From NCBI GenBank assembly GCA_965279515.1, contig CBDIID010000003.1, positions 1,120,001-1,184,000 of the forward strand: a stretch of DNA of 64,000 nucleotides, given 5' to 3'. Positions 25,273 to 39,148 of this stretch are shown piece after piece (within the stretch, counting starts at the first letter, position 1; each line of letters opens with the position of its first letter). Under the pieces are notes generated by a model that saw nothing but the letters and a program-made list of their open reading frames with translations, ran no database searches and was not told where the DNA came from. This DNA comes from Turneriella sp. (GTDB taxonomy: Bacteria; Spirochaetota; Leptospiria; Turneriellales; Turneriellaceae). A program made the translations under genes and the position numbers.

Positions 25273-27093
25273 CTATTCGGCGTATGAAGCCGTGGCGCGG
25301 CCGACCTCGCTCATTTTCGCCTCTTTCTTAAGACGCGCCAGCAGCGCCGAAATATCTTCCGGTTTTTCGGGTTTCTCGCCCGGTTTCAGTTCGACAATCG
25401 CCGCACTGATCGACAGAATGGGGAACTTCTTCACGGTGTTCTCGCGGTCGGTGGATGTATAGTGTTTTTGCCGCCGCTCCTCGGGCGAGAAAAAAGGCTT
25501 CACCTCGTGATCGAAGGCACTTTGCAGTTCATCGACAAGTCGTAATACCTCATCGGCGGCCCTGACCGTTGATTCATAGCCGAGAAAAAAATCATCGCCG
25601 CCGATATGGCCTACAAGAAATTCCGGCGGTACAAGGCGCCGCAGAATTTCCACAAATAGCATAATCGCGCGGTCCCCCTGGCGAAAACCAAAGCGGTCGT
25701 TGAACGGCTTAAAGTGGTCGAAGTCAAAATAGACAAAATAACAGAATAAACCGTCACGCAGCAAAGTTTCACTGATAAAGTTGTGGATAACAGTGTTTCC
25801 CGGAAGCCGGGTCAGCGGGTTCATATCGCGGGCCAGTGCCAGGTTTTTCTCGTGGATGACATTTAGTAGGGATTTTGCATTCAAAAATCCGAAATATTCG
25901 GTATTCTGAACAATGATGACACCTTCAGATTCGGGATGCGCGAGAAAAATCTCGAGAATTTTGTCCTGCGGCGTGTGGATGTCGGTGGTGGGAGACGGCG
26001 TTATGAAGGCGCGGAGTCCTTTCGTTACAGATTTATTGGAAAGCAGTTCGCGGCCATAGGGCGAGTAGACATATTGTTTGATCGTCTTTTCGTGAACGAT
26101 ACCCAGCGGCACGCGGTTGGTATCGAGAACCGGAAAAAAATTATAAAATTGCTGGTCGTGGAATTTATCGAGCAGTACGCGCACATCGTCATCGATGCCG
26201 ATGGTTTCGATCGGCAGAATTTCACGCTGTATCAGCTCAACGTCATTAAGCCGACGCCGCTGGCCTGCGGCCGCAGTCTGGCGTATCGCCTCATAATTAA
26301 AAAGCAGTTCGGCCATATCGAGCGTGGGCTTCTGTACATAATACCCCTGTATGAGATCGAAGCCAATGTCCTTGACGACGCGGAACTCCGCCTCGGTCTC
26401 AATCCCCTCGGCGATGGTCGTGACACCCTGCATGCGGCAGAGCGCCACAAGATGGGCGCAGATATTTTTTTTGCGCGAGTCGGCCTCGATACGTGAAATA
26501 AGAAAACGGTCAAACTTCAGGAACCCCGGGTCGGCATGGTAGAACAGCTCCATGCCCGCGAAACCCGAACCGAAATCGTCGAGCGCGATCTTAATCCCCC
26601 GCTCTTTCATGTTGCGGGAGAAACCGCCGAGTATTTCATGCGAGTCGATCGGGTATTTCTCATTAATTTCAAAACAAATCTGCCCGGGGCGCAGGTCAAA
26701 ATTCATCATCAGGCTTTCGGTCACACCGGGCCGGTAATCGGGCATCTCAAGAATACGCGGATCATAATTGTAAAAGAGTATCAATTTGTCGTGCACGGCG
26801 ATGCGCTTGAATTTCGCGATCGCTTTTTCCCGAAGTTTAACATCCACAATGAAGAGCAGGTCTTCGGCGAATGCCGCATCAAAAAGCGCATGCGGCTTAT
26901 CATAGCCCAAATGTTCGTAGCCGCGCAGCAAGGCTTCGACCCCAAAACTGACCCCGGTCACGGGGTGCACAATAGGTTGAAAGGCAAAATCAATCTGGTC
27001 GAGCCGTTTCAGCCAATCAGCTACCGCATCGGCATGCAGCGAAACAGAGCCCCGGTAATTGTTTTCCTCAAGGCTTTGAGTCGCGCTGGCCAT
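25273..27093 (-). CDS. EAL-CBS-GGDEF c-di-GMP turnover protein
   Basis: FQPIV, EALLR, LDDFGSG, AEGIET, QGYY; CBS-like middle; NPLTRLPGN, DFDHFKPFND, GHIGGDDF. Confidence 0.9.
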   Translation of the reverse strand: MASATQSLEENNYRGSVSLHADAVADWLKRLDQIDFAFQPIVHPVTGVSFGVEALLRGYEHLGYDKPHALFDAAFAEDLLFIVDVKLREKAIAKFKRIAVHDKLILFYNYDPRILEMPDYRPGVTESLMMNFDLRPGQICFEINEKYPIDSHEILGGFSRNMKERGIKIALDDFGSGFAGMELFYHADPGFLKFDRFLISRIEADSRKKNICAHLVALCRMQGVTTIAEGIETEAEFRVVKDIGFDLIQGYYVQKPTLDMAELLFNYEAIRQTAAAGQRRRLNDVELIQREILPIETIGIDDDVRVLLDKFHDQQFYNFFPVLDTNRVPLGIVHEKTIKQYVYSPYGRELLSNKSVTKGLRAFITPSPTTDIHTPQDKILEIFLAHPESEGVIIVQNTEYFGFLNAKSLLNVIHEKNLALARDMNPLTRLPGNTVIHNFISETLLRDGLFCYFVYFDFDHFKPFNDRFGFRQGDRAIMLFVEILRRLVPPEFLVGHIGGDDFFLGYESTVRAADEVLRLVDELQSAFDHEVKPFFSPEERRQKHYTSTDRENTVKKFPILSISAAIVELKPGEKPEKPEDISALLARLKKEAKMSEVGRATASYAE

Positions 27094-27098
27094 GTTCA

Positions 27099-27704
27099 CT
27101 AATTTTCCAGCAATTGGCGCAGATTGTTTAAGGTCTGGTAAGGCAAGTGCCCCACCATACCGGATACCGCCCAACCCGGAAGACTACCACCTGGCTCGGA
27201 ATGCATGGAATAGGTGATTTCAACGGCACCCGGTGACAGTTCGGTGAATTTCCAGTACCCCTTTAACTGTGAAATGCGGACACGCCCCGGAGTCGGTGGT
27301 ATCGCATCGGGAACAGCTTCCATGGTGACCGAAATCAACGGAGGCGTGGCCGATTTGCGGAACATAAACCGCACTACCGCTTCACGCTCAGCGATCGGCC
27401 ATGGTGTCGCCTGCACCGAGAAAACAATGCCGCTCGTTGCCGAGAATTTTGCAATTTGTTTTGATTCCTTGCAGTCCTTCATCCAGGCGGTGTAGCCTGG
27501 AATATTCTGCATCACCGCCATCACCTTATCTAGCGTTGTTTTTGCTGTCATAACGGCCTTAAATTCTTTATATTCAGAGCCGGCCACAGGTCGTGTTTCA
27601 ATGGTGATGCCGTTCTTTTGGAACGCCCTTTTCCATGTGCCATCCCCGTACAGGAATGGCGTCAGGATAAAAACGGCTATACAGATTAGCTGTCGGGTCG
27701 GCAC
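27099..27704 (-). CDS. START-domain (lipid/ligand-binding) protein with signal peptide
   Basis: WKRAFQKNGI, YKEFKA, TPWPIAERE, HSEPGGSLPGW. Confidence 0.82.
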   Translation of the reverse strand: MPTRQLICIAVFILTPFLYGDGTWKRAFQKNGITIETRPVAGSEYKEFKAVMTAKTTLDKVMAVMQNIPGYTAWMKDCKESKQIAKFSATSGIVFSVQATPWPIAEREAVVRFMFRKSATPPLISVTMEAVPDAIPPTPGRVRISQLKGYWKFTELSPGAVEITYSMHSEPGGSLPGWAVSGMVGHLPYQTLNNLRQLLEN

Positions 27705-27723
27705 AGGTCTGTTTTGATTCTAT

Positions 27724-27743
27724 ATTTAGCCAATCAACTAATT
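27724..27743. promoter_or_regulatory. Palindromic operator, copy 1 (START / STAS divergent region)
   Basis: ATTTAGCCAATCAACTAATT. Confidence 0.7.
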
Positions 27744-27794
27744 ATTATGTCGCTCAATCCAGCTGCTGACCTTTGAGGCATAAAAGGAGGATAA

Positions 27795-28142
27795 ATGGAA
27801 TTTTCTAAGCGCGAATCCGGTTCGATTACAATTTTCGATATCAGTGGCGAAATCGACGTCTATAATGCGGGCTCGCTCAAAAACACCCTGCTACAGGAAA
27901 TCGAAGCTGGAAAAAACCGCATCGTTCTGAACATGAAGCGCGTCTCTTACATCGACTCAACGGGCATCGGTGTTCTGCTTTGGGCATTGCAGGCCGTGAA
28001 ACAAAAACAGGGCGGACTTAACCTGTTCTCCATCTCAGAAAGCATACGCAAGGTGTTTACACTGACAGGCCTTTTGAAGTTCCTTGAAATTTACGACGAT
28101 GAAGACACCGCCAAAGCGGCGCTCACGCCAGATTCGCCGTAA
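27795..28142 (+). CDS. STAS-domain anti-sigma factor antagonist
   Basis: ISGEIDVYNA, VSYIDSTGIG; RBS AGGAGG. Confidence 0.92.
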   Translation: MEFSKRESGSITIFDISGEIDVYNAGSLKNTLLQEIEAGKNRIVLNMKRVSYIDSTGIGVLLWALQAVKQKQGGLNLFSISESIRKVFTLTGLLKFLEIYDDEDTAKAALTPDSP

Positions 28143-28413
28143 GTTTATCAAGCTTATGCAGATGGTAGGCCATTTCATGGATGCGAATGCGCTTTTCTAT
28201 TTCTGGTAAACCTTCGAGAGCTTCGAGAAATACACGTTGCTCCTGTAAGGGCCAATGATCGAATAATCTGCAATGGACCGCCGCGAGGATGGTATCCTGA
28301 AACGAATCATCGAGCAATGATTCGCGGATTGTTTTAGCCCGCGTGACGGAAATTCCGGCCATAATTTTTATTTTTTCGCTGCAGCGCAGGTATTCAAGGT
28401 AATCCCGATTCAT
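28123..28413 (-). CDS. Hypothetical protein, last gene of the ParA operon
   Basis: GGAGGA RBS before ATG 28413; overlaps the parA-like stop. Confidence 0.6.
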   Translation of the reverse strand: MNRDYLEYLRCSEKIKIMAGISVTRAKTIRESLLDDSFQDTILAAVHCRLFDHWPLQEQRVFLEALEGLPEIEKRIRIHEMAYHLHKLDKLTANLA

Positions 28414-29182
28414 GTTGTTCCTCCGTTGTCTCAGGCGCAATGCCTGTTTTGGCGCAGATCTCGCGCCATAAGATCATATAGGCTTCCGCGGGCGCAGATA
28501 GTTTTGCACGGGCGTTCACGGGTTTACGCCGGATGCCCATTTTTTCGATCTCGCCGCTGAAAGGAATGTAGTTTCTGCAGATTTGCGGATTGGATGCCCA
28601 GAGAATTTCCATGCTTTCGTGGTGCAGCTTTTTACGCGCCTGAACCATAGAAAAGAACGGAATGATGGCGGCCTGATCGATTTCATTCTCAGCATAAAAT
28701 TGCCCGATCTGCTGCAGTGTTCTCAGCGACAGTGTCGTGGGAATTACAGGGACCAGTAAAAAGTCAGAGGCTTTGAAGATGTTCTCCGAAAGCAGCAAAA
28801 TACCGGGCGGGCTGTCCAGGAAAACAACGTCGAAATTTTCACGCAGCGGCTTCAGCGCCTCGCGTATACGGCGCCGCGATTTTTTCATGTCGTCGAGCGC
28901 GATGTCGATATTCCTGAATTCAAAATCAGCCGGTATGAGTGATAGGCGCGGGTATTCTGTTTGGCGGATGATTTCGGAAATGTCATCTTTGCCCTTCACG
29001 ACCCTTTTGACCGAGCTCGTTTCCGGTTCGACCGCCCTGAGATAATAACCGGCGGCGCCTTGCGGGTCAAGATCCCAAATCAGCGTTTTCAACCCCCCTT
29101 TGGAGGCGAGATAAGCCAGGTTGACCGCCGTTGCGGTTTTCCCGACTCCCCCTTTCAGGTTGTAGACGCCCAAAGTCAGCAT
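28394..29182 (-). CDS. Orphan ParA/MinD-family ATPase
   Basis: YNLKGGVGKT, WDLDPQG, LDSPP. Confidence 0.9.
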   Translation of the reverse strand: MLTLGVYNLKGGVGKTATAVNLAYLASKGGLKTLIWDLDPQGAAGYYLRAVEPETSSVKRVVKGKDDISEIIRQTEYPRLSLIPADFEFRNIDIALDDMKKSRRRIREALKPLRENFDVVFLDSPPGILLLSENIFKASDFLLVPVIPTTLSLRTLQQIGQFYAENEIDQAAIIPFFSMVQARKKLHHESMEILWASNPQICRNYIPFSGEIEKMGIRRKPVNARAKLSAPAEAYMILWREICAKTGIAPETTEEQHESGLP

Positions 29183-29502
29183 TATTTCTCTTTTTTCTTC
29201 GGTTTCTCTTTTTTCCGGGATTTTTGCGATTCTGCGTGCTTTTTAAGCTGCTTTTTTACATGCTTATGAAGATGGCGCAGTTCTTCTGCGGTTACCGCTT
29301 CGTTCGCCTTGGCGGCTTCAAACTGCTGCCGGGCACTATCCAGATGTGTTTTGGCCACCGAGTAGGCTTCGAGCGCCGTTTCCAGGTTCTTGCGGACTTC
29401 AAGGCTAACGGCGACATCAGAAACCCCTTCAGCCATGGTGCGCAAACGTTCTACTTTTTCCCTGGCCTTCTCTGCCAGGTCACTTTTTTCTTTTTCCTTC
29501 AT
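29182..29502 (-). CDS. Small coiled-coil protein with basic C-terminal tail
   Basis: 106-aa ORF, TAATG coupling to the ParA gene, Lys-rich end. Confidence 0.65.
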   Translation of the reverse strand: MKEKEKSDLAEKAREKVERLRTMAEGVSDVAVSLEVRKNLETALEAYSVAKTHLDSARQQFEAAKANEAVTAEELRHLHKHVKKQLKKHAESQKSRKKEKPKKKEK

Positions 29503-29565
29503 ATTCCCTCACTTAAACAACAAAAAAGCCCAATACCGGCCTATCTGTAAAGCTTTAAATATGTC

Positions 29566-29585
29566 ATTTCGGAAATTAACTAATT
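29566..29585. promoter_or_regulatory. Palindromic operator, copy 2
   Basis: ATTTCGGAAATTAACTAATT. Confidence 0.6.
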
Positions 29586-29610
29586 ATAAAGCGATGCATC
29601 AATCGCTCTT

Positions 29611-29630
29611 ATTTAGTTAATTAGCTAAAT
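29611..29630. promoter_or_regulatory. Palindromic operator, copy 3 (best palindrome)
   Basis: ATTTAGTTAATTAGCTAAAT, 18/20 identical to its reverse complement. Confidence 0.75.
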
Positions 29631-29693
29631 TTACAATTTACAAGATGACTACACTTCAGTTATGTCCCCCAAAATAACCCGAATGGAGAAACA

Positions 29694-30563
29694 ATGAAAA
29701 ACACCTCTGAAGCAACGAAATACTCTCTAAAAACCCTGCTTTTCATGGCACTCGTCGTTGGAGCGATCTTTACGACCACAACGATGGCCCAAACTGCCCC
29801 GGCAAAACCAGCCGTCGCCCCCGCTGCTGCGGCCCCTGCAGCCGCAACCCCAGGCGCGCCAGCCACCGGTGAAGCTGCCCCCCTGGGCAGCGAAGGCAAT
29901 AAAGAAGCTGCCTCATTCGCCGAAGCGGGTGATATCAACATCTTCCATAGCAAAGATCCTGCGCTGTGGATTCTCATCGCCCTGTTCTTTATCGCCCTCG
30001 CCATCGGCGCCGAGCGCCTTTGGGTGCTTCTGAACAGCAAATCGGCCAACGCTGACCTTGTGCGCCTCGTCACAGAGCGACTCAGCAAGAACCCCGGGAC
30101 CGGCGAAGACCTCGCGGCCGAAGTGGCGACCCCCAAATTCGGCGTCGAAGGCCGCATCGTGGCCGTGACACTGAAGGGCTGGCAGCACGACGAAGATACG
30201 ATTCAATCATATGCCAATGCAGCGATGGTCGCTGAACGCCGCTACCTCAGCTCACGCCTGCCGATTCTTTCGACCCTCGGTAACAACGCTCCGTTTATCG
30301 GCCTTTTGGGCACGGTTTTAGGTATCATGAAAGCCTTCCGCGATCTCGCCGGCGCAGCCGATGCAGGTCCGCAGGTCGTGATGAAAGGTATCTCTGAAGC
30401 GCTGGTCGCCACGGCGATGGGCCTCGGCGTCGCGATTCCCTGCGTGATGCTCTTCAACTACTTCTCTTCGGTCATCAAACGCAAAATGTCAAACGCCGAA
30501 GAAGTTACCAACATTATCGTGGCGCTGCGCCGGGCAACACGCTCGGGCAACAAGGTAGTCTAA
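29694..30563 (+). CDS. exbB: ExbB/TolQ/MotA proton channel
   Basis: TLGNNAPFIGLLGTVLGIM, GISEALVATAMGL. Confidence 0.92.
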   Translation: MKNTSEATKYSLKTLLFMALVVGAIFTTTTMAQTAPAKPAVAPAAAAPAAATPGAPATGEAAPLGSEGNKEAASFAEAGDINIFHSKDPALWILIALFFIALAIGAERLWVLLNSKSANADLVRLVTERLSKNPGTGEDLAAEVATPKFGVEGRIVAVTLKGWQHDEDTIQSYANAAMVAERRYLSSRLPILSTLGNNAPFIGLLGTVLGIMKAFRDLAGAADAGPQVVMKGISEALVATAMGLGVAIPCVMLFNYFSSVIKRKMSNAEEVTNIIVALRRATRSGNKVV

Positions 30564-30564
30564 A

Positions 30565-30993
30565 ATGGCCGCGAAAGTAGGCGATTCAGGCGGCGACGAG
30601 GTTATCGGCGACATCAATGTCGTACCCCTCGTCGACATCATGCTCGTGCTCGTGATCATTCTGATGGTCACAGCCGAGTTCACGAAATACCGCACGGTAC
30701 CCATCCAGCTGCCCAAAGTCAATGCAGTGGCGATGAAACGTGAACCGCATAAAGTGGCGATCACTATCAAGCCCGACGGGAAAGTTTTTCTCGGCGATAA
30801 GCCGATCAAGAATCTCGAAGAGCTGGGGCCTCGCCTCACCGCCGCCAAAAAAGCGCAACCCGATGTTGCGGTGATTCTGCGCATGGAAAAAGACACGAAA
30901 TACAGCGACATGCTGAAGGTTCTCGATGACGTAAAACTCTCGGGCATCAGCAAGGTCGGTCTCGCCGTCGACTCGGCAAAAAAAGGTAAGTAG
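30565..30993 (+). CDS. exbD: ExbD/TolR
   Basis: INVVPLVDIMLVLVIILMV. Confidence 0.92.
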   Translation: MAAKVGDSGGDEVIGDINVVPLVDIMLVLVIILMVTAEFTKYRTVPIQLPKVNAVAMKREPHKVAITIKPDGKVFLGDKPIKNLEELGPRLTAAKKAQPDVAVILRMEKDTKYSDMLKVLDDVKLSGISKVGLAVDSAKKGK

Positions 30994-30998
30994 GATTT

Positions 30999-31742
30999 AT
31001 GGCTGCGGATGTAATTAACCCCCCTCCCAGCCTCCCCCCTAATAGGGGGGAGGTGCCGAAGGCGGTGGGGGGTAAGCGCAGTTCGCGCCGCGGCGTCGTA
31101 ACCTTCGACGGCATTCGCCTCGGCAACGGCACGCTGCTCTACCCCGGCCTTTCGAACACATTTGAGAATTATGAGCTCATTCCCTGGATCAGCCGGCACA
31201 AAGCTGTCTGGCTCGGCGCTATCTTGCTCATACTGTCGTTAGGTTACACGTTCATCAATATCAACTGGGGCCCGTCAGACGACGAACTCGACAAGATCGC
31301 TGTCGGCGTCGACTTTGGCGACGTGGTACAGCCATTCAAAAAGAAACCGGCGAAACCGCGTGAAGAAGTCGACGAAGTTTTCGGCAATGAATTCATCAAA
31401 GACAAAAAGGTAGACCCCGACAAAGAAGATCCGCGTATCTCGACGGCCGCAAACTCTGCTGTTGCCGGTGGCAACGGTGGTGTCGATCTCTCACCCGAAA
31501 TCAGGCCTCCTTATACTGCTGAGGCCAGATCGTCTGGCATCGAAGGCACAGTGACGCTTGAAATCGTCATCGACGAAACCGGCAAAGTATTGCGCGCACG
31601 CGCCGTCGGTAAAAAGCTCGGCATGGGGCTCGATGAGGCGGCGATGAAGACCTACCGCCAGAAAAAATTCAGCCCTTACGTGGTTCAGGGTAAAGCCGTA
31701 CCGATCAAGAGTTATATCCGCGTAAAGTTCGCTCTGGAATGA
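30999..31742 (+). CDS. tonB: TonB energy transducer
   Basis: Single TM; C-terminal PPYTAEARSSGIEGTV...GLDEAA...FSP. Confidence 0.88.
   Translation: MAADVINPPPSLPPNRGEVPKAVGGKRSSRRGVVTFDGIRLGNGTLLYPGLSNTFENYELIPWISRHKAVWLGAILLILSLGYTFININWGPSDDELDKIAVGVDFGDVVQPFKKKPAKPREEVDEVFGNEFIKDKKVDPDKEDPRISTAANSAVAGGNGGVDLSPEIRPPYTAEARSSGIEGTVTLEIVIDETGKVLRARAVGKKLGMGLDEAAMKTYRQKKFSPYVVQGKAVPIKSYIRVKFALE
31017..31073 (+). repeat. GC-rich palindromic element in frame inside the tonB 5' end
   Basis: CCTCCCCCCT-AAT-AGGGGGGAGG stem within ACCCCCC...GGGGGGT; encodes PPPSLPPNRGEVPKAVGG. Confidence 0.7.
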
Positions 31743-31748
31743 CCTAGG

Positions 31749-31787
31749 ATGAGGATTACATGCGACATAAGCAGGGTTAATCCTCAT
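31749..31787 (+). terminator. Stem-loop after tonB (terminator or mRNA stabiliser)
   Basis: ATGAGGATTA...TAATCCTCAT perfect 10-bp arms, followed by TATTT. Confidence 0.5.
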
Positions 31788-31796
31788 TATTTCTAC

Positions 31797-31816
31797 ATTT
31801 AGCCAATTACCTAATT
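31797..31816. promoter_or_regulatory. Palindromic operator, copy 4 (upstream of the TBDR)
   Basis: ATTTAGCCAATTACCTAATT. Confidence 0.72.
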
Positions 31817-31859
31817 AATGATTTACAGTTTGAGTGCGTTGCAAAAAAGGAGAACAGAC

Positions 31860-34730
31860 ATGCTGCGAAACAGCCAAAAGTCAAATTTAAAGGGGTTAAC
31901 CGGGGCCATCGCGCTTGCGTTAGCTCTCTATTCCATTCAGGGCGACCTTTTCGCCGCCCCTAAAAAGGCAGCGCCAGCCGCCACAGCAGTCGCCGGCCCC
32001 GCGGGCACCATACGCGGCAAGGTTATCGACTCAGCCAACGGCGAGCCGATGATCGGCGTCACGGCGGTGGTCAAAGAGCTCAACCTCTTTGCAGTCACCG
32101 ACATCGACGGCAGTTATGTCATTACGAACGTACCCCCGGGTGCGCAGACGGTCACCTACCAGATTCAGGGCTACCAGACGGCAGCGACACAGGTCAATGT
32201 CGCGCCAGGCAAGGCGGCGCGCGCTAACGTGACGATGAATTACCAGGTCTCGAAAGAGGTCGTGGTGACGGCGAAGCGGATGGACAACACGGCAGCATCA
32301 CTTCTTTCGAAACAGAAGAAGGCCGCCGCTGCTCAAGATGCGATTTCCGCCGAACAGATCAATAAGAGCCCCGATAACGACGCGGCCGATGCCGCAAAGC
32401 GGGTAACTGGCCTTAGCATCGTCGGTGGGCAAAACGTTTTCATACGCGGGATGTCCGACAGATACTCCGTAGTCCTCGTAAACGGCGCCTTGGTGCCCTC
32501 ACCTATTCCCACGCGACGCGTAGTGCCTCTCGATATTTTCCCTGTGTCGTTGCTGGATAACATGACTGTCGTCAAAAGTTATTTGGCGAAATATCCAGGG
32601 GAATTCGGTGCCGGAGTCATCGACATCGAAACGCGGGATTATCCAGAGCAAAAAGAACTCAAACTAGGATTAAGTTTTGGGGCAAATACCCAAACGACCT
32701 TTAAAACATTCGGAACCTATTCAGGCGGTAAGCTTGATTTTCTCGGCTATGACGATGGTACGCGCTCCTTACCGAGCCAAATTTCAAGCTCTAAAGTGTC
32801 ACCGTACAGTTCCGTCACTGGAACAGGATATACAAATTCAGAACGCATTGCTATCGCGCAACAGTTTAACAATAGTTGGTCCAGAAAAGACTCTTCTGGC
32901 TTACCAGCAGGTCGAATCAGCGTTTCATTTGGCAATACATACGAGCTCGGTCAAAACCAAAAGCTAGGCGTACTGGCTTCAGGATTTTTTCAGGAAAGTT
33001 CACAGACCATCAAAGGCGTTTTCAAGCGCTACCTCGCTGATAAATCTCTGGCTGCCGATTATTCGTATGAAGATTTTAATTATTCCACAACGAAAACCGG
33101 GCAGCTTTCCCTTACCTATGCTTCGTCAAAGCGGAATAAGTTTAAGCTAAATACTTTTTACACACAAAAATCCAGTGATACAACACGACAAAATATCGGC
33201 CAATACGATTATTCAAGCAACGGAACAAAGACCATCCTTGCATTTTCTGAAGCATCACTGATATTTAATCAGCTCAAAGGTGAGCACAAGCTTGAGTTCT
33301 TAGATTCTGAAATAGATTGGTATCTAAACGCTTCCGTTGCGCTACGTAACCAGCCTGATACCCGCGCTACTCGTTATACAAAAGATGGCCTATTTGAACA
33401 ATCTCGCAACATGACGCGGTACTTTAACAACCACAATGAGAACCTGTTTCAGGGTGGGGCCGCGTTCCACACGCCTTTCCAGCAGTGGTCGGGCCTTAAG
33501 GCAAAATTCAGCGTTGGCGGTGATGCTTCTTACCGCTACCGAACCACAAAGAGCCGGCGCTTTACCCATGACTTGCAAAGCATACCGAACCTAGCGCTTT
33601 CTGCTGAAGACATCTTTCGTCAGGGGCAACCTATGACCTCAGAAGTCACCGGTACATCGATTGCCGAGGGGCTTGATGCCTATGACGCATCGTTGCAAAT
33701 CTTTGGCGGTTACACTCAGTTAGATATGCCGCTTATTCCGCGCCTGCGCTTTATTCCCGGCGTTCGGGTGGAAAACTGGAAACAAAAGGCGGATGCCTTT
33801 AACATTTTTGACAGCTCACTGAAAGATAAGTCACAATTAACAGCCACAAATGTTATGCCTACAGTGAATCTCGTCTACACACCTATTGACGACCTGAATA
33901 TCCGGTTGGGTGGCAGCCAGACTATCAATCGCCCCGATTTTATCGAGGCGGCCAATTTCAGGCTCTTTGACGATTTAGTCACAGGAGCTCTCATCAAAGG
34001 TAATCCCAATCTTCAAGCCGCGACCATTACCAGCGGCGACCTGCGTGTAGAATATTTCCCCGGTGTCGCCGAGGTAATTGCTGTCAGTGGTTTTTACAAA
34101 CAAATTGATAAACCCATCGAGGCAGCGGTCGGTGCCTTAGCAGATGACCTGCAATTCACATACATCAATCAAAACAAAGCAACTTTGCTCGGTGGTGAAA
34201 TTGAAATCCGTAAAAACCTGGGCTTCATTTCCGGTTTTCTAAAACCGTTTTCTGTTCTGTCGAACGCAACCATAGTTCAATCAGAAATTGAATTCAATCC
34301 TAGTGTAACAACGGTCGAGACCAACAAGCGCCGTCCATTGCAAGGACAATCTCCTTGGTTGCTTAATGCGGGACTTTATTACGATAACGAAAAATCCGGA
34401 ACCAGTATCGCCGGCCTCTATAATGTTTTCGGCCGCCGAATTGTTCAGGTCGGGGTGAACGGCCTACCCAACACCTATGAAGAATCGTACGGTACGCTTG
34501 ACCTGATTCTCAAGCAGAAATTCGGAAAATCCATCGATCTAAAGATCGCAGCAGCTAATTTATTAGATCCTGAAATCACTCAAAACCAGGGAACCGATGA
34601 CAAGTTGCTGGTAGAAAGATATCGCCGGGGCATTAATATCTCTGTCGGCGTAACCTATAGCCTCTGGGCGGCACAACAAGAAGAAAGTAATACTGAAATC
34701 GAAAAAGTATCAAAAGGAGAATCAAAATGA
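31860..34730 (+). CDS. TonB-dependent receptor with N-terminal carboxypeptidase-regulatory-like domain
   Basis: AAGGAG RBS; GTIRGKVID, plug IRGMSDRY / VPLDIFP, barrel RPLQGQSP, NLLD. Confidence 0.92.
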   Translation: MLRNSQKSNLKGLTGAIALALALYSIQGDLFAAPKKAAPAATAVAGPAGTIRGKVIDSANGEPMIGVTAVVKELNLFAVTDIDGSYVITNVPPGAQTVTYQIQGYQTAATQVNVAPGKAARANVTMNYQVSKEVVVTAKRMDNTAASLLSKQKKAAAAQDAISAEQINKSPDNDAADAAKRVTGLSIVGGQNVFIRGMSDRYSVVLVNGALVPSPIPTRRVVPLDIFPVSLLDNMTVVKSYLAKYPGEFGAGVIDIETRDYPEQKELKLGLSFGANTQTTFKTFGTYSGGKLDFLGYDDGTRSLPSQISSSKVSPYSSVTGTGYTNSERIAIAQQFNNSWSRKDSSGLPAGRISVSFGNTYELGQNQKLGVLASGFFQESSQTIKGVFKRYLADKSLAADYSYEDFNYSTTKTGQLSLTYASSKRNKFKLNTFYTQKSSDTTRQNIGQYDYSSNGTKTILAFSEASLIFNQLKGEHKLEFLDSEIDWYLNASVALRNQPDTRATRYTKDGLFEQSRNMTRYFNNHNENLFQGGAAFHTPFQQWSGLKAKFSVGGDASYRYRTTKSRRFTHDLQSIPNLALSAEDIFRQGQPMTSEVTGTSIAEGLDAYDASLQIFGGYTQLDMPLIPRLRFIPGVRVENWKQKADAFNIFDSSLKDKSQLTATNVMPTVNLVYTPIDDLNIRLGGSQTINRPDFIEAANFRLFDDLVTGALIKGNPNLQAATITSGDLRVEYFPGVAEVIAVSGFYKQIDKPIEAAVGALADDLQFTYINQNKATLLGGEIEIRKNLGFISGFLKPFSVLSNATIVQSEIEFNPSVTTVETNKRRPLQGQSPWLLNAGLYYDNEKSGTSIAGLYNVFGRRIVQVGVNGLPNTYEESYGTLDLILKQKFGKSIDLKIAAANLLDPEITQNQGTDDKLLVERYRRGINISVGVTYSLWAAQQEESNTEIEKVSKGESK

Positions 34731-36271
34731 AAAAAGCGAAGTTAATCGCAGTTTCACTAGTCGCCGCTGCGCTACTGGTATCGAACTGCTCTTCCAGTAG
34801 TGACAGTGCATCAACGGATGCGTGTGCGAAAGTAAACAGTGACGGCGGCATGTGCGGAGATATCACAAGCAGCAAAAGTTATGCTGCGAATTCGAATATC
34901 AGCATTCGTGGTGCGGTGAAGATAAAATCGGGTAATACGCTGACCATCGGTGCCGGCTCGACGATCAAGGCGGACACCTCAACCCTAACCTACCTGCTGA
35001 TTGAACGGGGTGCCACCATCAGCGCTGTCGGTACGGCGGCAAATCCCATTGTTTTCACCAGTGGGGGGACCACAGGAAGCCGAAACCCGTCAGATTGGGG
35101 TGGCATCGTCGTTCATGGTAAATCAGCGACTAATAATACCGCCAGCCTGAATTATGCGGCAGATTCTGAGATCTTTACCGGCCCGTATGGGTGCGGTGAA
35201 TCCGGAAACGCTTGTGATGGCTCATTAAACAACAGCGATAGCAGCGGTACGATTCAGTATGTTCGCATCGAATTTGCAGGCCGGGAGATTTCTGCCGGTA
35301 AAGAATTTAACGGACTTTTCCTGGCCGGGGTTGGTAAAGGTACAACGATTGATCACGTACAATTCCACAGAGGTTCTGACGACGGCATTGAAATATTCGG
35401 TGGCGCGGTTGATATTCGTTATGCCATGATTACCGATAACCAGGACGACGCCTTCGATGTAGATGAAGGTTGGAGAGGCACAGCGCAATTTGTCGTAGCT
35501 GCTGTCCCTAAAGATGGGGATCAAGGCATTGAGTACGATGGTATTGGCGCAGACGCAAGCCGTGCGACTAATGTACCTTTATCCAATTTTACCATTCTTG
35601 GGTCTATCAATAAAACCGTTCCCGGCGCAATTTCGGTTCGTGCCAGTGGCACAATGGGGTTATACAATTCGTACATTGCCCACTTCTCAGGCACGAATGG
35701 TGTAGTTGCTGTGGCTGACAATTCGGTTTGTTTAGCAAAGAACTCCGCCGCAACAGCAGGTAGCGCTCCAGTTACATGCAGTGGCTCGGCAGTTACACCC
35801 GATGCAAATTTCGTAGGCACATATCGCTTACGCTTCGAGAGTAACTTACTCGAGTGTATGTTCACGGAAACATCATTTACGACAGCAAAAGCAAGTCTGG
35901 ATTCTCTGTTTGCGCGGGGCAACCAACCCAATGGAGCCAGTGCGAGCAGCTTTAACGCGAACAGTGCCAGTGCTGCAGGAACAGACATGAGTACGGTAGG
36001 TAGATTTCCGACTTCCGCCGGTACTGGGAACAACGACAGTTCCGTCTTAAACTGCACAGCTCCGAAACTAGCACGGCCGGGCGACGGCGTGCTTTGGGGC
36101 GTGACCAGCGGAGTTTCTGAATTCAGACCTGCTGCCATTACAAGCTTGACAGAAACTGATCCACCTGCAGCTCCGAACGGAACGGATATAAGCCTGCCTG
36201 GTTATGTCGGTGCCTTCTCAGGCGTAGGCGATACCTGGGCTGATACCTGGACATCTTTTCCCGCAAACTAA
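34727..36271 (+). CDS. Secreted lipoprotein, predicted beta-helix-like, partner of the TBDR
   Basis: Lipobox LVSNC; PIVFTS..DWGGIV, SGTIQYVRIEFAG, GVGKGTTIDHVQ, DDGIEIFGG, DDAFDVDEGW; ATGA overlap with the TBDR. Confidence 0.8.
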   Translation: MKKAKLIAVSLVAAALLVSNCSSSSDSASTDACAKVNSDGGMCGDITSSKSYAANSNISIRGAVKIKSGNTLTIGAGSTIKADTSTLTYLLIERGATISAVGTAANPIVFTSGGTTGSRNPSDWGGIVVHGKSATNNTASLNYAADSEIFTGPYGCGESGNACDGSLNNSDSSGTIQYVRIEFAGREISAGKEFNGLFLAGVGKGTTIDHVQFHRGSDDGIEIFGGAVDIRYAMITDNQDDAFDVDEGWRGTAQFVVAAVPKDGDQGIEYDGIGADASRATNVPLSNFTILGSINKTVPGAISVRASGTMGLYNSYIAHFSGTNGVVAVADNSVCLAKNSAATAGSAPVTCSGSAVTPDANFVGTYRLRFESNLLECMFTETSFTTAKASLDSLFARGNQPNGASASSFNANSASAAGTDMSTVGRFPTSAGTGNNDSSVLNCTAPKLARPGDGVLWGVTSGVSEFRPAAITSLTETDPPAAPNGTDISLPGYVGAFSGVGDTWADTWTSFPAN

Positions 36272-36279
36272 AAACTTCG

Positions 36280-36302
36280 GCGGCCTCTTTGAGGCCGCTT
36301 TT
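36280..36302 (+). terminator. Intrinsic terminator
   Basis: GCGGCCTC-TTT-GAGGCCGC-TTTT. Confidence 0.7.
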
Positions 36303-36311
36303 CCACAAAAC

Positions 36312-36827
36312 ATGAAACACAGATTATCCATAATCCTGCTCATACTGGCCTTCGTGTCTTGCGGAAAGAAAGTACCTCCTCTCAACGACCCCTTCGAAAG
36401 CCTCAAGGCCCTGACAGAACATCATCTGCACTGCATCGAACTGAATCAGGTCGAATGCCTCTCCGGCAGGCTATTATCCTACAAAGAATTTACAGCAAGC
36501 ATATACGCTTCCCTACCTGAAGGCAAAGATCCCGTCGCCAACATTTCACCAGACGTTTATTGGGGCTGGATTCTACCCGACAGGAAAAGGGGGATCAAAA
36601 AGCTCATGGAACGCTTCGGCGGAATGAAGTTAGTCAATTATACACTCGGCGAACCCAAAAGAGTAATGAAACTCGATGGAATCAAACTCCATAGGGATAT
36701 CCCCTTGTTTGCCGAGTTTCTAGATGCTAAGGATAATAAAAAGCATCAGCTCAGTTCTTCAGAAATACTCAAGGCCGTCGTCGAAGTCGATGGCAGTTTT
36801 AAACTCTGGAATCTTACGTACGAGTAA
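36312..36827 (+). CDS. Hypothetical lipoprotein
   Basis: MKHRLSIILLILAFVSC lipobox. Confidence 0.75.
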   Translation: MKHRLSIILLILAFVSCGKKVPPLNDPFESLKALTEHHLHCIELNQVECLSGRLLSYKEFTASIYASLPEGKDPVANISPDVYWGWILPDRKRGIKKLMERFGGMKLVNYTLGEPKRVMKLDGIKLHRDIPLFAEFLDAKDNKKHQLSSSEILKAVVEVDGSFKLWNLTYE

Positions 36828-36849
36828 CTTTGTCCGCATGCAAAAAAAC

Positions 36850-36892
36850 TTGCCACCACTCTTTAATTCCATATTATGGCAAATAACTAAAT
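36850..36892 (+). promoter_or_regulatory. Putative sigma70 promoter (TTGCCA-N16-TATTAT) overlapped by operator copy 5 (36873-36892)
   Basis: ATTATGGCAAATAACTAAAT ends immediately before ATG 36893. Confidence 0.55.
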
Positions 36893-37837
36893 ATGAACCG
36901 TCTGCAAATTAAATACCTCCAACATAAAATCAGCCGTTTTTGCATGGCTTCGGCCATGATAGCTATGCTCGGCGCCTGCAAGGGGAAGCAAGAAGTTCTG
37001 ATCAGCGGCTCAGAAACCATGCGGGGAGTGATTGGCGTTCTGGCTGAATCTTTCAATGCCAGCCAAAACCGTTATCTGGTAAAAGTCGGCGGCGGCGGCT
37101 CCAAGGTCGGCATCGACGACCTGACACACAGCCGCGTCGACATGGCCATGACCTCAAACGACATCAGCGAAACTCACCTCGCCGCGCTGGCCGACATCAG
37201 CAAATTCGAGAAAGTAGAAATCGGTTACGACGGCATCGCCATCGTTGTGCATCCCTCAAACCCGGTTACGCGCATCGATCTTTTGCAATATTCACAAATT
37301 CTCGCCGGCAAAATCACCAATTGGAAGCAGCTGGGCGGCGCCGATATGGCTATCATTCCCGTCGTGCGGAATAAATTTTCAGGCACCGAAGGTTATGTGC
37401 GCGAGCATGTTCTGCGCCGCAAAGATCTGGGTGAGCCTGTCTATGAAGCGTATAAAGATATCGAGTATGGCCCCGGCGCCGTCGTGAAACGCGATAACCG
37501 CGAGATTTTTGATTTCATCGACACCAACCTCGGCGCGATTGCATACATGGGTGTCGGCGTCGTAAAATCCGAAGGCGGAAAAAAAATCAAGATTCTGGAT
37601 TATTCGCTGCTGAAAGACGGCCCTTTCCTGCAACCGACGGTTGAAAATATTCAGGGTGGCAAATACCGCCTGTCGCGCGCACTCTCGATGGTCTATGTTC
37701 CCGATAACAGCAAGAAAGATGCTTTCATCGCCTTTACGCTCAGCGAGCAGGGACAGAAAAAGGTGCGCGAATACGATTATATGCAGGCAGCACCCACGAC
37801 GGTGCTCGTCATAGAAAAAAGGACACAGCCAAAATAA
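36893..37837 (+). CDS. pstS: PstS-family phosphate-binding lipoprotein (orphan; start may be 36944)
   Basis: LGAC lipobox; SGSETM, GGGSKVGI, GYDGIAIVVHPSNPV, RNKFSGT, YRLSR. Confidence 0.82.
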   Translation: MNRLQIKYLQHKISRFCMASAMIAMLGACKGKQEVLISGSETMRGVIGVLAESFNASQNRYLVKVGGGGSKVGIDDLTHSRVDMAMTSNDISETHLAALADISKFEKVEIGYDGIAIVVHPSNPVTRIDLLQYSQILAGKITNWKQLGGADMAIIPVVRNKFSGTEGYVREHVLRRKDLGEPVYEAYKDIEYGPGAVVKRDNREIFDFIDTNLGAIAYMGVGVVKSEGGKKIKILDYSLLKDGPFLQPTVENIQGGKYRLSRALSMVYVPDNSKKDAFIAFTLSEQGQKKVREYDYMQAAPTTVLVIEKRTQPK

Positions 37838-37838
37838 T

Positions 37839-38303
37839 ATGCTGATGCCAGCGCACCCGCTCATGTCGCATTCGGATGCCCCCAGTGCGATTTTATTTAT
37901 CCGCAGCGGACGCATCGCCACGGCAATGCTGGAAGGCGAACTCTCAAAACTCGGACTTACCGTGCCCTATGCGAGTATTCTCACAGCCCTGCTCGAACAC
38001 GGCTCGAAATCAGCCACAGATCTCTGTATACTGACAATGCGCGAGCGCGCGAACATGAGCGTACTTTTAAGTAAGCTTAAGAAAATCGAATACGTTTCAG
38101 AAAAACCAAACCCACTCGATGCACGCAGCCAGGTCATCTCGCTCACCGGCGAAGGAAAAAAAATGGCCGGTAAATGCCGTGAGGTGACAGAAGAGGTTTC
38201 GGGTCTCATCGATAATTTCCTGAAAACCCATGAAGAGAGCCCGGAAAAATTCCGCACGCTCATGGCCGACTTTCTCGGCAAATTTCATTCATTGTACGTA
38301 TAG
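37839..38303 (+). CDS. MarR-family transcriptional regulator
   Basis: LSKLGLTVPYASIL, wHTH, PLDARSQVISLTGEG. Confidence 0.85.
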   Translation: MLMPAHPLMSHSDAPSAILFIRSGRIATAMLEGELSKLGLTVPYASILTALLEHGSKSATDLCILTMRERANMSVLLSKLKKIEYVSEKPNPLDARSQVISLTGEGKKMAGKCREVTEEVSGLIDNFLKTHEESPEKFRTLMADFLGKFHSLYV

Positions 38304-39148
38304 ACCAGAAGCGTTTTCCCCCGGGCGCGGCCGTTTTCCATATCGCGTTTGAGGGCCAGCACTGCCCTCACCATATAGACATCGTCAATGCGGATGCCCC
38401 ACGCGGAAGAGTATGCGGCGGCCACGTGAATCAACTCAGCGTTTTTTTTGCCGAAAGTTCCGGAAAAGTCCGTGATGAGTTCAAAACGATCGGCCGCCGC
38501 TGGTGCTAAACGGCGGATGGTGTCCTGAACCTGGGATTCGTTTCTGAGCACGGCGGCAGCGACGATACGCGTGGGTGATTTTGTCGCTGCAAGAAATCCG
38601 GCTGCAGTTGTTCCCGTCGCGCACGGCAGATAGATTGTTTCAAAACTCTCAGCCGCTGCTGCCCAGAGTTTAACCCCGCTCACACCTTCGGCGCCGAGGC
38701 CACCCTCGGGAATAAAAACCGCAGCCGCAAAATCGACTTCGGGAATCAGGCCCCGCCGCTGCCGGGGTTCGGCGTCACGCAGCTCCCTGTAAACAGAGCG
38801 TGATACAAAGAGGCAATGGACTCCCTGCGCTTCCGCAAAACGGATGGTATCCGACTTGCGCGCCGGGTCGGCGAGCTCGTCACCGCGGATCAGCGCCGTT
38901 GCCTGAAAACCTTCTGCTGCGGCGAATGCTGCGAATGCGCGTAGATGGTTCGAATGTGCCCCGGCCATGGTGATGAGGTGCGACAGGTTTTGTTCACGGG
39001 CACGGCCCACGTAGCCCTTAAGTTTGAAGAATTTATTACCACCGAGATGCGTTAATTTAACCGGGGACGATAAGAGGCTGAGGTCTAACCGCCAATCGTT
39101 GGAAAGCGGCCGAATGGTCCCATGCACGTGCGAAGGCGTGTTTTTCAC
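38285..39148 (-). CDS. PLP-dependent D-cysteine desulfhydrase / ACC deaminase family protein
   Basis: GGNKFFKL, GAHSNHL, IPEGG, CATGTTAAG. Confidence 0.85.
   Translation of the reverse strand: MKNTPSHVHGTIRPLSNDWRLDLSLLSSPVKLTHLGGNKFFKLKGYVGRAREQNLSHLITMAGAHSNHLRAFAAFAAAEGFQATALIRGDELADPARKSDTIRFAEAQGVHCLFVSRSVYRELRDAEPRQRRGLIPEVDFAAAVFIPEGGLGAEGVSGVKLWAAAAESFETIYLPCATGTTAAGFLAATKSPTRIVAAAVLRNESQVQDTIRRLAPAAADRFELITDFSGTFGKKNAELIHVAAAYSSAWGIRIDDVYMVRAVLALKRDMENGRARGKTLLVYTYNE

Follow-up and report, generated by a model that had tools for sequence, protein, structure and literature searches.

A genome-wide palindromic operator in Turneriella points to a predicted phosphate-starvation regulon with an ArsR/SmtB-type protein as candidate reader

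Control of the bacterial phosphate-starvation response is treated as a near-synonym of PhoR/PhoB and the direct-repeat Pho box, the direct repeats of which are bound near the -35 region by an activating response regulator. One-component regulators of phosphate-acquisition genes, acting beside or instead of PhoB, include PhnF (GntR family) of Mycobacterium smegmatis and PtrA (CRP family) of marine cyanobacteria, and we know of no report of either as the sole master of a Pho-type regulon. Here we analyzed a 64,000-nucleotide stretch of a Turneriella sp. genome (the window, G000:C3:1120001-1184000; genome G000 comprises 4.9 Mb with 53% G+C), in which five copies of a 20-bp palindrome are spread over an 11-kb block that ends with the gene for a MarR-family regulator. 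A first-pass annotation of the window had proposed that this MarR protein represses the whole block. We favor a different reading, to which we assign a probability of roughly 0.55, namely that the palindromes are operators of a regulon comprising about 14 promoters across the genome, predicted to constitute a phosphate-starvation response and likely read by a cysteine-free ArsR/SmtB repressor encoded divergently from pstS, with the pstS2-marR unit as one of its targets.

Reading of the sequence verified the palindromic 20-mers, to which no strand was assigned, at 27724-27743 (site 1, ATTTAGCCAATCAACTAATT, between a START gene on the minus strand and a STAS gene on the plus strand), 29566-29585 (site 2, ATTTCGGAAATTAACTAATT, 64 bp upstream of a minus-strand operon for a 106-amino-acid (aa) protein, a ParA-like ATPase and a 105-aa protein), 29611-29630 (site 3, ATTTAGTTAATTAGCTAAAT, a perfect pattern match upstream of the plus-strand exbB-exbD-tonB genes), 31797-31816 (site 4, ATTTAGCCAATTACCTAATT, upstream of a TonB-dependent receptor operon) and 36873-36892 (site 5, ATTATGGCAAATAACTAAAT, over the -10 box of the pstS2-marR promoter). 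Their position weight matrix (PWM) scores were 34.0, 28.5, 35.3, 32.7 and 28.3, respectively. A scan of the window with ATTTAGNNAATTNNCTAAAT at up to three mismatches returned exactly these five sites and none other, compared to a chance expectation of 0.18 on average and 1 at most in 100 dinucleotide shuffles, and all five lay between open reading frames (ORFs) according to the ORF and Pfam calls. The copies, their intergenic placement, the lack of further copies noticed in the window and the gene map of the block had all been described correctly in the first-pass annotation.

The restriction of the regulon to these 11 kb, in contrast, did not hold. The same pattern matched the genome 16 times at up to three mismatches, with 11 of the matches outside the block. 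A PWM built from the five window sites only, a check that had been suggested along with the original claim, yielded matches far above the control, for which the genome was reversed but not complemented: ten genome matches at 20 bits or more (five of them new) versus none, 13 versus none at 18 bits and 23 versus three at 16 bits. An extended 26-bp PWM based on eight sites (the five window sites and three of the new ones) separated 14 sites of at least 20.5 bits from a next match of only 15.1. All 14 are located in front of genes, even though crude ORFs cover about 94% of the genome; a single site had been flagged as intragenic, and it is placed 8 bp ahead of the most plausible OlsF start codon (ATG). 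The consensus over the resulting 28 half-sites, A(27) T(19) T(28) T(27) M(A14/C12/T2) G(28) Y Y A(25) A(22), corresponds to the operator ATTTMGYYAATTRRCKAAAT, in which the half-sites are inverted rather than directly repeated. A promoter for an alternative sigma factor was rejected as an explanation, since the arms are symmetrically conserved and both orientations occur in divergent regions. Among the weak PWM matches, two identical 26-mers at G000:C3:3755017 and G000:C3:125978 (score 11.5) represent a repeated element of some kind, and a run of coding-sequence matches of the form AATTCGGTGATTG... within 3 kb (G000:C3:3380464-3383208) probably reflects internal gene repeats and not operators.

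Outside the window, one site precedes pstS and another precedes pstC of the pstS-pstC-pstA-pstB-phoU operon, and a further site is found before genes for a PP2C (SpoIIE) phosphatase and a metallophosphoesterase that follow directly on phoU. Other sites precede genes encoding a GT4 glycosyltransferase, OlsF (E 1.5e-172 and 575 bits against the OlsF equivalog, whose cut-off is 620), a second phosphatase (PP2C-TPR) along with an M14 peptidase, a porin of the Porin_O_P type, an Orn/Lys/Arg decarboxylase and a 102-aa protein without family. One site is positioned between two divergent units, a TIG-lactonase beta-propeller gene and an Endonuclease_NS operon with an OlsE-like fatty-acid hydroxylase among its products. 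The phosphate response is deduced from this gene content, which, with PstS2 and the TonB system of the window added, resembles that of a phosphate-starvation regulon with high-affinity uptake, phosphorus-free lipids and nucleic-acid scavenging. For OlsF of Vibrio cholerae, ornithine lipid is reported to be induced at low phosphate (PMC12186959; review PMC12971839).

The relatives available for comparison are kin and mostly metagenome-assembled genomes (MAGs), and counts among them are not independent. Each of 13 pstS loci, drawn from two genera, had an upstream site of at least 19 bits, and strong conservation across the aligned arsR-pstS intergenic region was limited to promoter-like boxes and, above all, the palindromes. 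Conservation in orthologous loci, on which the first-pass annotation had staked its motif, extended to the window sites as well: the site before the receptor gene was found in nine of nine related loci (genus g1, genera g3, g4 and g6, and family f5), the site before exbB in all six that include this region, and site 5 in 11 of 11 orthologous pstS2-marR loci with otherwise unalignable flanks. Upstream of pstS2-marR the alignment contained a CTTGCC -35 box, the hexamer TATTAT and the palindrome in nearly invariant form. Site 1 has a counterpart between STAS and START in G002 and G011, where these two genes are far from exbB, while the EAL-CBS-GGDEF orthologues of G002, G011 and G003 carry their own site and a site scoring 19.7 precedes the G003 homologue of the 106-aa gene. 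Altogether, sites and target genes are conserved over six genera and a sister family.

Two further locations were observed in relatives. In G002 (L110, G002:C1:1428700-1433700, 2515) and G011 (L117, G011:C1:3389300-3394300, 2510) a carotenoid-oxygenase-like (RPE65) gene is separated by a site from a gene for an Oxidored_FMN/pyridine-nucleotide-disulfide oxidoreductase; no comparable high-scoring site was seen in G000. The OlsF site of G017 (L074, G017:C101, 1037-6698) has on its other side an ankyrin-repeat gene with a PAS-GGDEF-EAL gene behind it, which places a c-di-GMP enzyme under the motif in another genus, too.

The position of the sites relative to predicted promoters suggests that the operators act by repression. 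A sigma-70-type promoter of pstS2-marR (TTGCCA-16-TATTAT, 10/12 matches) is predicted at 36850-36877 on the plus strand and ends inside the left arm of site 5, in line with the earlier proposal that this site covers the -10 box; because TATTAT falls inside that arm, the arm deviates to ATTATG in all 11 genomes. Similarly, the left edge of site 1 is overlapped by the -10-like TATATT of a predicted promoter at 27698-27726, an arm of the pstS operator reads TATACT, and a TTGACC box abuts the OlsF site. The outer arms coincide with the -10-like hexamers TATATT, TATTAT and TATACT, and the symmetric form TATATTTMG...CKAAATATA could supply a -10 box in both directions, which suits divergent regions. 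A dimer bound over such boxes would occlude RNA polymerase, as expected for a repressor.

The candidate reader is a 118-aa protein of the ArsR/SmtB family (HTH_5; G000:C3:899583-899939) whose gene is divergent from pstS and which scored 79 bits against NF033788 (cut-off 55). In the intergenic region a strong site precedes pstS and a weaker one abuts the arsR start codon. The arsR gene adjoins pstS with sites between them in 11 of the 14 genomes of the genus, G000 included; in ten of these the two genes diverge within about 320 bp, and in G010 they are 1.8 kb apart. In G013, arsR and a porin gene point in the same direction with a site between them, and on its other side arsR is separated by sites from the divergent pstSCAB-phoU. 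The orthologue of the sister family f5 (G023, 55% identity) is the last gene of a pstC-pstA-pstB-phoU-arsR operon that adjoins pstS as well as an exbB-exbD-tonB/site/receptor-500aa-171aa block mirroring the window. Orthologues were detected in 18 of 40 relatives, all in f1 and f5, the families with the motif. A search for related loci with the ArsR-like protein returned 15 loci from the same lineage only, and the subfamily is narrow, with four clusters at E <= 1e-30 among 1.84 billion representatives.

The properties of the protein fit this assignment. Its helix-turn-helix (HTH) and wing (PLVVNDIK...LSMxTxSQHLxILR...KQGRWV) do not vary among orthologues whose overall identity ranges from 94% to 55%, and an invariant recognition helix is what an unchanged operator would call for. 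The predicted structure (pLDDT 88.5) displays the ArsR/SmtB fold with an extra C-terminal helix, and SqrR, CzrA, HlyU and SmtB are the closest solved folds (Foldseek; phmmer). The protein contains no cysteine, which excludes alpha3 sites as thiolate sensors of As(III), Cd or Zn; the orthologue L097 of G013 has a single one. The operator ATTTMG-N8-CKAAAT spans 20 bp in a 6-8-6 arrangement and shares this geometry with the CadC box ATTCAA-N8-TTGAAT, for which a CadC-DNA co-crystal study reports a 20-bp duplex with critical spacing (10.64898/2026.09.30.755606).

Several points weigh against the favored explanation. The assignment of the ArsR-type protein as reader draws on gene linkage and co-occurrence in genomes that, as stated above, are related, mostly MAGs and non-independent. 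Even a profile search detected no orthologue in G001 (84% complete) or in G017, which carries the motif and is 83% complete. The orthologues of genera g3, g4 and g6 have a PP2C-HAMP gene, and not pst, as their neighbor; a site precedes the PP2C-HAMP/arsR operon in g3 and g6, and in g4 (G016) no PWM site of at least 12 occurred within 7 kb of arsR, with the relevant upstream region cut by a contig end. The pstS/pstC intergenic region of G023 gave no PWM match of 6 bits or more and contains, by eye, a 23-bp palindrome with longer arms. In addition, several targets fall outside the classical Pho set (decarboxylase, M14 peptidase, START and ParA-like operon).

Some of these observations would also be expected if the motif were read by another regulator encoded away from the sites, with the ArsR-like gene merely a neighbor of pst and the phosphate regulon left standing. 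Besides the absence of a detected orthologue in G017 and the location of arsR away from pst in g3, g4 and g6, this explanation gains from the indirect nature of the assignment, our comparison of regulators having covered the loci adjoining sites. Against it, no other regulator gene recurs beside sites in the examined loci of G000, G002, G011, G016, G017 and G018, linkage of arsR to pst recurs in two families, each with its own arrangement, and the geometry of the operator is compatible with an ArsR/SmtB dimer. We consider such an unlinked regulator doubtful, yet a serious contender.

The MarR protein itself is an unlikely reader of the sites, and as an autoregulated repressor of the block it has become very improbable. 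It does belong to a winged HTH family (27.5 bits against MarR_2, cut-off 27; weak PDB matches to Rv2887 and OhrR), translational coupling joins its gene to pstS2, the -10 box of their common promoter is covered by a site kept in 11 of 11 loci, and within the genus the MarR-bearing genomes possess more motif copies than the MarR-less G010 and G013. The latter correlation is confounded, however, since the receptor and OlsF genes are absent from G013 and G010 as well. Of the 13 genomes that represent the rest of the genus, 11 had a MarR orthologue (56-92% identity), whereas G013 (99% complete) and G010 (82% complete) lacked one; outside the genus none was found in 27 genomes, yet the motif precedes the same kinds of targets in five MarR-less genera or families. 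Within the genus, it was located before pstS and the porin gene in G013 and before pstS in G010. Elsewhere, it preceded a receptor-502aa-184aa operon, exbB and a PHO4 transporter in G016 (g4), a PHO4 transporter, exbB-exbD and OlsF in G017 (g5), a PP2C-HAMP phosphatase and, weakly, a receptor in G018 (g6), and a receptor in both G019 (g3) and G023 (f5). Moreover, in G005, G007 and G004 pstS2-marR is on a different contig from the receptor block. Given this persistence of motif and target genes without MarR, marR is more plausibly a target than the reader, and with MarR and motif failing to co-occur across genomes the claim that MarR represses the whole block is unlikely to hold. The first-pass annotation had named another factor as the one implicated in such an outcome, and the MarR-less genomes and the phosphate-type content lead there. 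Of the coupling it had proposed, the part in which one operator set joins TonB-dependent uptake, STAS, START/EAL-GGDEF and pstS2-marR appears to stand; MarR as its reader most likely does not.

An even less probable variant retains MarR in part by assuming two regulators within the genus, with the TTCG-type pst sites read by ArsR and the TTAG-type sites (block, OlsF and porin) captured by MarR. Indeed, in G000 the sites of the block, OlsF, the porin and pstS2 are mostly of the form TTAG...CTAA with an AATT center, and those of the pst locus mostly of the form TTCG...CGAA with a WWWW center. Nevertheless, mixed sites are common (site 2, 904526 and 3252779), position 5 varies among the 28 half-sites (14 A, 12 C and two T), and TTAG-type sites exist in the MarR-less G013, G016, G019 and G023. 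The split by type was rejected because orthologous OlsF sites change type between MarR-bearing genomes, from TTAG in G000 to TTCG in G002 and G011.

The least probable of the explanations considered is a response to metal (iron or zinc) or arsenate instead of phosphate. It might have been indicated by ExbBD-TonB with a TonB-dependent receptor as typical metal-regulon members, the M14 zinc peptidase adjoining a site, the metalloregulator family of the candidate and the competition of arsenate with phosphate. Against it, the genes for pstSCAB-phoU, PstS2, Porin_O_P, OlsF, PHO4 transporters, nuclease and metallophosphoesterases all belong to the economy of phosphate, and we saw neither siderophore genes nor znu or ars beside a site. 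The zinc (AdcR or Zur), iron (Fur or DtxR) and arsenic readings were set aside on the basis of gene content and of the absence of any cysteine from the ArsR-like protein.

With regard to the conventional regulators, the best match to the PhoB model TIGR02154 scored 199.6 bits against a cut-off of 296.2 that only two of 14 control genomes passed, and the best match to the PhoR model TIGR02966 scored 207 bits against a cut-off of 334.2 that only one of the 14 passed. PhoB-model scores reached 251-255 bits in family f6, compared to 171-200 in f1 and f5. We searched for pstS in five genomes of the ArsR-less families f2, f3, f6 and f7 and found it in four (none in G021, f3). The four pstS loci, from f2, f6 and f7, contained no PWM match above 12 bits, and none upstream of pstS. 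Two of them, both from f6 (G028: L127, G028:C100; G024: L128, G024:C30), exhibited TTAACA-like words at 11-bp intervals about 60-150 bp upstream of pstS, which we take to resemble PhoB/PhoP-type boxes and which probably form a conventional Pho box. In G028 a gene for an OmpR-family regulator adjoins pstS. Taken together, the comparison suggests that a one-component repressor may have replaced PhoB/PhoR in the lineage of f1 and f5.

Under the ArsR-type reading, a repressor dimer would sit on the sites and occlude the promoters when phosphate is sufficient, and would leave them upon starvation. Starvation would then switch on high-affinity uptake (pstSCAB-phoU, PstS2, the OprP-like porin, and TonB-dependent uptake via the receptor and a beta-helix lipoprotein), the synthesis of phosphorus-free lipids (OlsF, the OlsE-like hydroxylase and the GT4 glycosyltransferase), nucleic-acid scavenging and signaling modules (STAS, PP2C phosphatases and EAL-GGDEF). 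The linkage of arsR to phoU invites the speculation, from gene order, that the repressor is coupled to Pst/PhoU. We therefore offer only as a tentative proposal, itself not probable, that an ArsR-type repressor binds a 6-8-6 palindrome doubling as the -10 box of its targets and receives its signal from the Pst/PhoU complex of its linked operon.

The block in the window comprises the following genes. To the left of site 1, an EAL-CBS-GGDEF protein (25273-27174, minus strand, Pfam) is probably co-transcribed with a START/polyketide-cyclase-like protein (27099-27704, minus strand, Pfam), and to its right lies a STAS-domain protein of the anti-sigma-factor antagonist type (27795-28142, plus strand, Pfam). 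Site 2 faces the operon at 28123-29502 (minus strand) for the 106-aa protein, the ParA-like ATPase (28394-29182) and the 105-aa protein, both of the small proteins being without a Pfam family. The ParA-like gene adjoins exbB in G000 only and not in G011, G002, G005, G007 or G003; homologues of the small genes were found near exbB only in G003 among six related genomes, and since G003 has them without the ATPase, the latter seems to have entered a small regulated operon recently.

The exbB, exbD and tonB genes (29694-31742, plus strand, Pfam) are followed by the TonB-dependent receptor (970-aa ORF), a 514-aa beta-helix lipoprotein and a 171-aa lipoprotein (31818-36827, plus strand). This trio is kept in G011, G002, G005, G018, G003, G016 and G023, and in G007 the contig ends within the 514-aa gene. 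In every case the receptor carries a carboxypeptidase-regulatory domain at its N-terminus and precedes two lipoproteins, of about 500 and about 171 aa (e.g. L082, G023:C27 6321-11169; L067, G016:C9 2508-7456), the larger of which is a predicted pectate-lyase-like beta-helix (Beta_helix_4, Atlas); in G023 the trio adjoins pst genes. PstS2 (36893-37837, plus strand, PBP_like_2) is a divergent binding lipoprotein of the PstS family that scored 143 bits against TIGR02136, below the cut-off of 206.6. The marR gene (37839-38303, plus strand) starts 1 nt past the pstS2 stop, and an ORF for a PALP-domain protein (pyridoxal-phosphate enzyme; 38285-39148, minus strand) converges on it, overlapping its last 19 bases. 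The gene order marR/PALP/TPR is retained in G011, G002 and G003.

The sites thus delineate a predicted Pho-type regulon that is conserved in at least six genera and a sister family and appears to operate with a different cis-element and with repressor logic, its probable reader being a one-component protein that belongs to a family of metal sensors but no longer has the metal ligands. A full-text literature search, judged from its result listings, did not reveal a description of an ArsR-type Pho regulator or of such a system. If true, this would be a clear non-orthologous replacement of a core nutrient regulator and an undescribed form of phosphate-starvation control. For free-living Leptospirales, the analysis also yields a list of genes that are candidates for a phosphate response, among them the receptor and its beta-helix lipoprotein, and it corrects a plausible regulator assignment by adjacency, that of MarR, which is most likely wrong.

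In comparison with described systems, the predicted regulon shares with PhoB/PhoR of proteobacteria and PhoP/PhoR of Bacillus the pstSCAB-phoU genes, an extra PstS, a phosphate-selective porin, phosphorus-free lipids, a nuclease and phosphoesterases. It differs from the PhoB Pho box in that its element is a 20-bp palindrome over -10-like boxes, which would imply repression. MarR-type autoregulators (MarR, OhrR and AdcR) resemble the window MarR in that it is a winged HTH protein behind a palindrome-bearing promoter, but the window MarR and the motif do not co-occur across genomes. PhnF and PtrA differ from the candidate in protein family as well as in operator. The ArsR/SmtB proteins CadC, CzrA, SmtB, SqrR and HlyU match the candidate in their winged-helix fold, a palindromic operator (a 20-bp 6-8-6 inverted repeat in the case of the CadC box) and the location of the gene beside the regulated operon with a site at its own start. 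Unlike these, the candidate lacks cysteine and any obvious metal site, carries an extra C-terminal helix and belongs to a very narrow subfamily, and its predicted regulon serves phosphate scavenging and not metal or sulfide detoxification.

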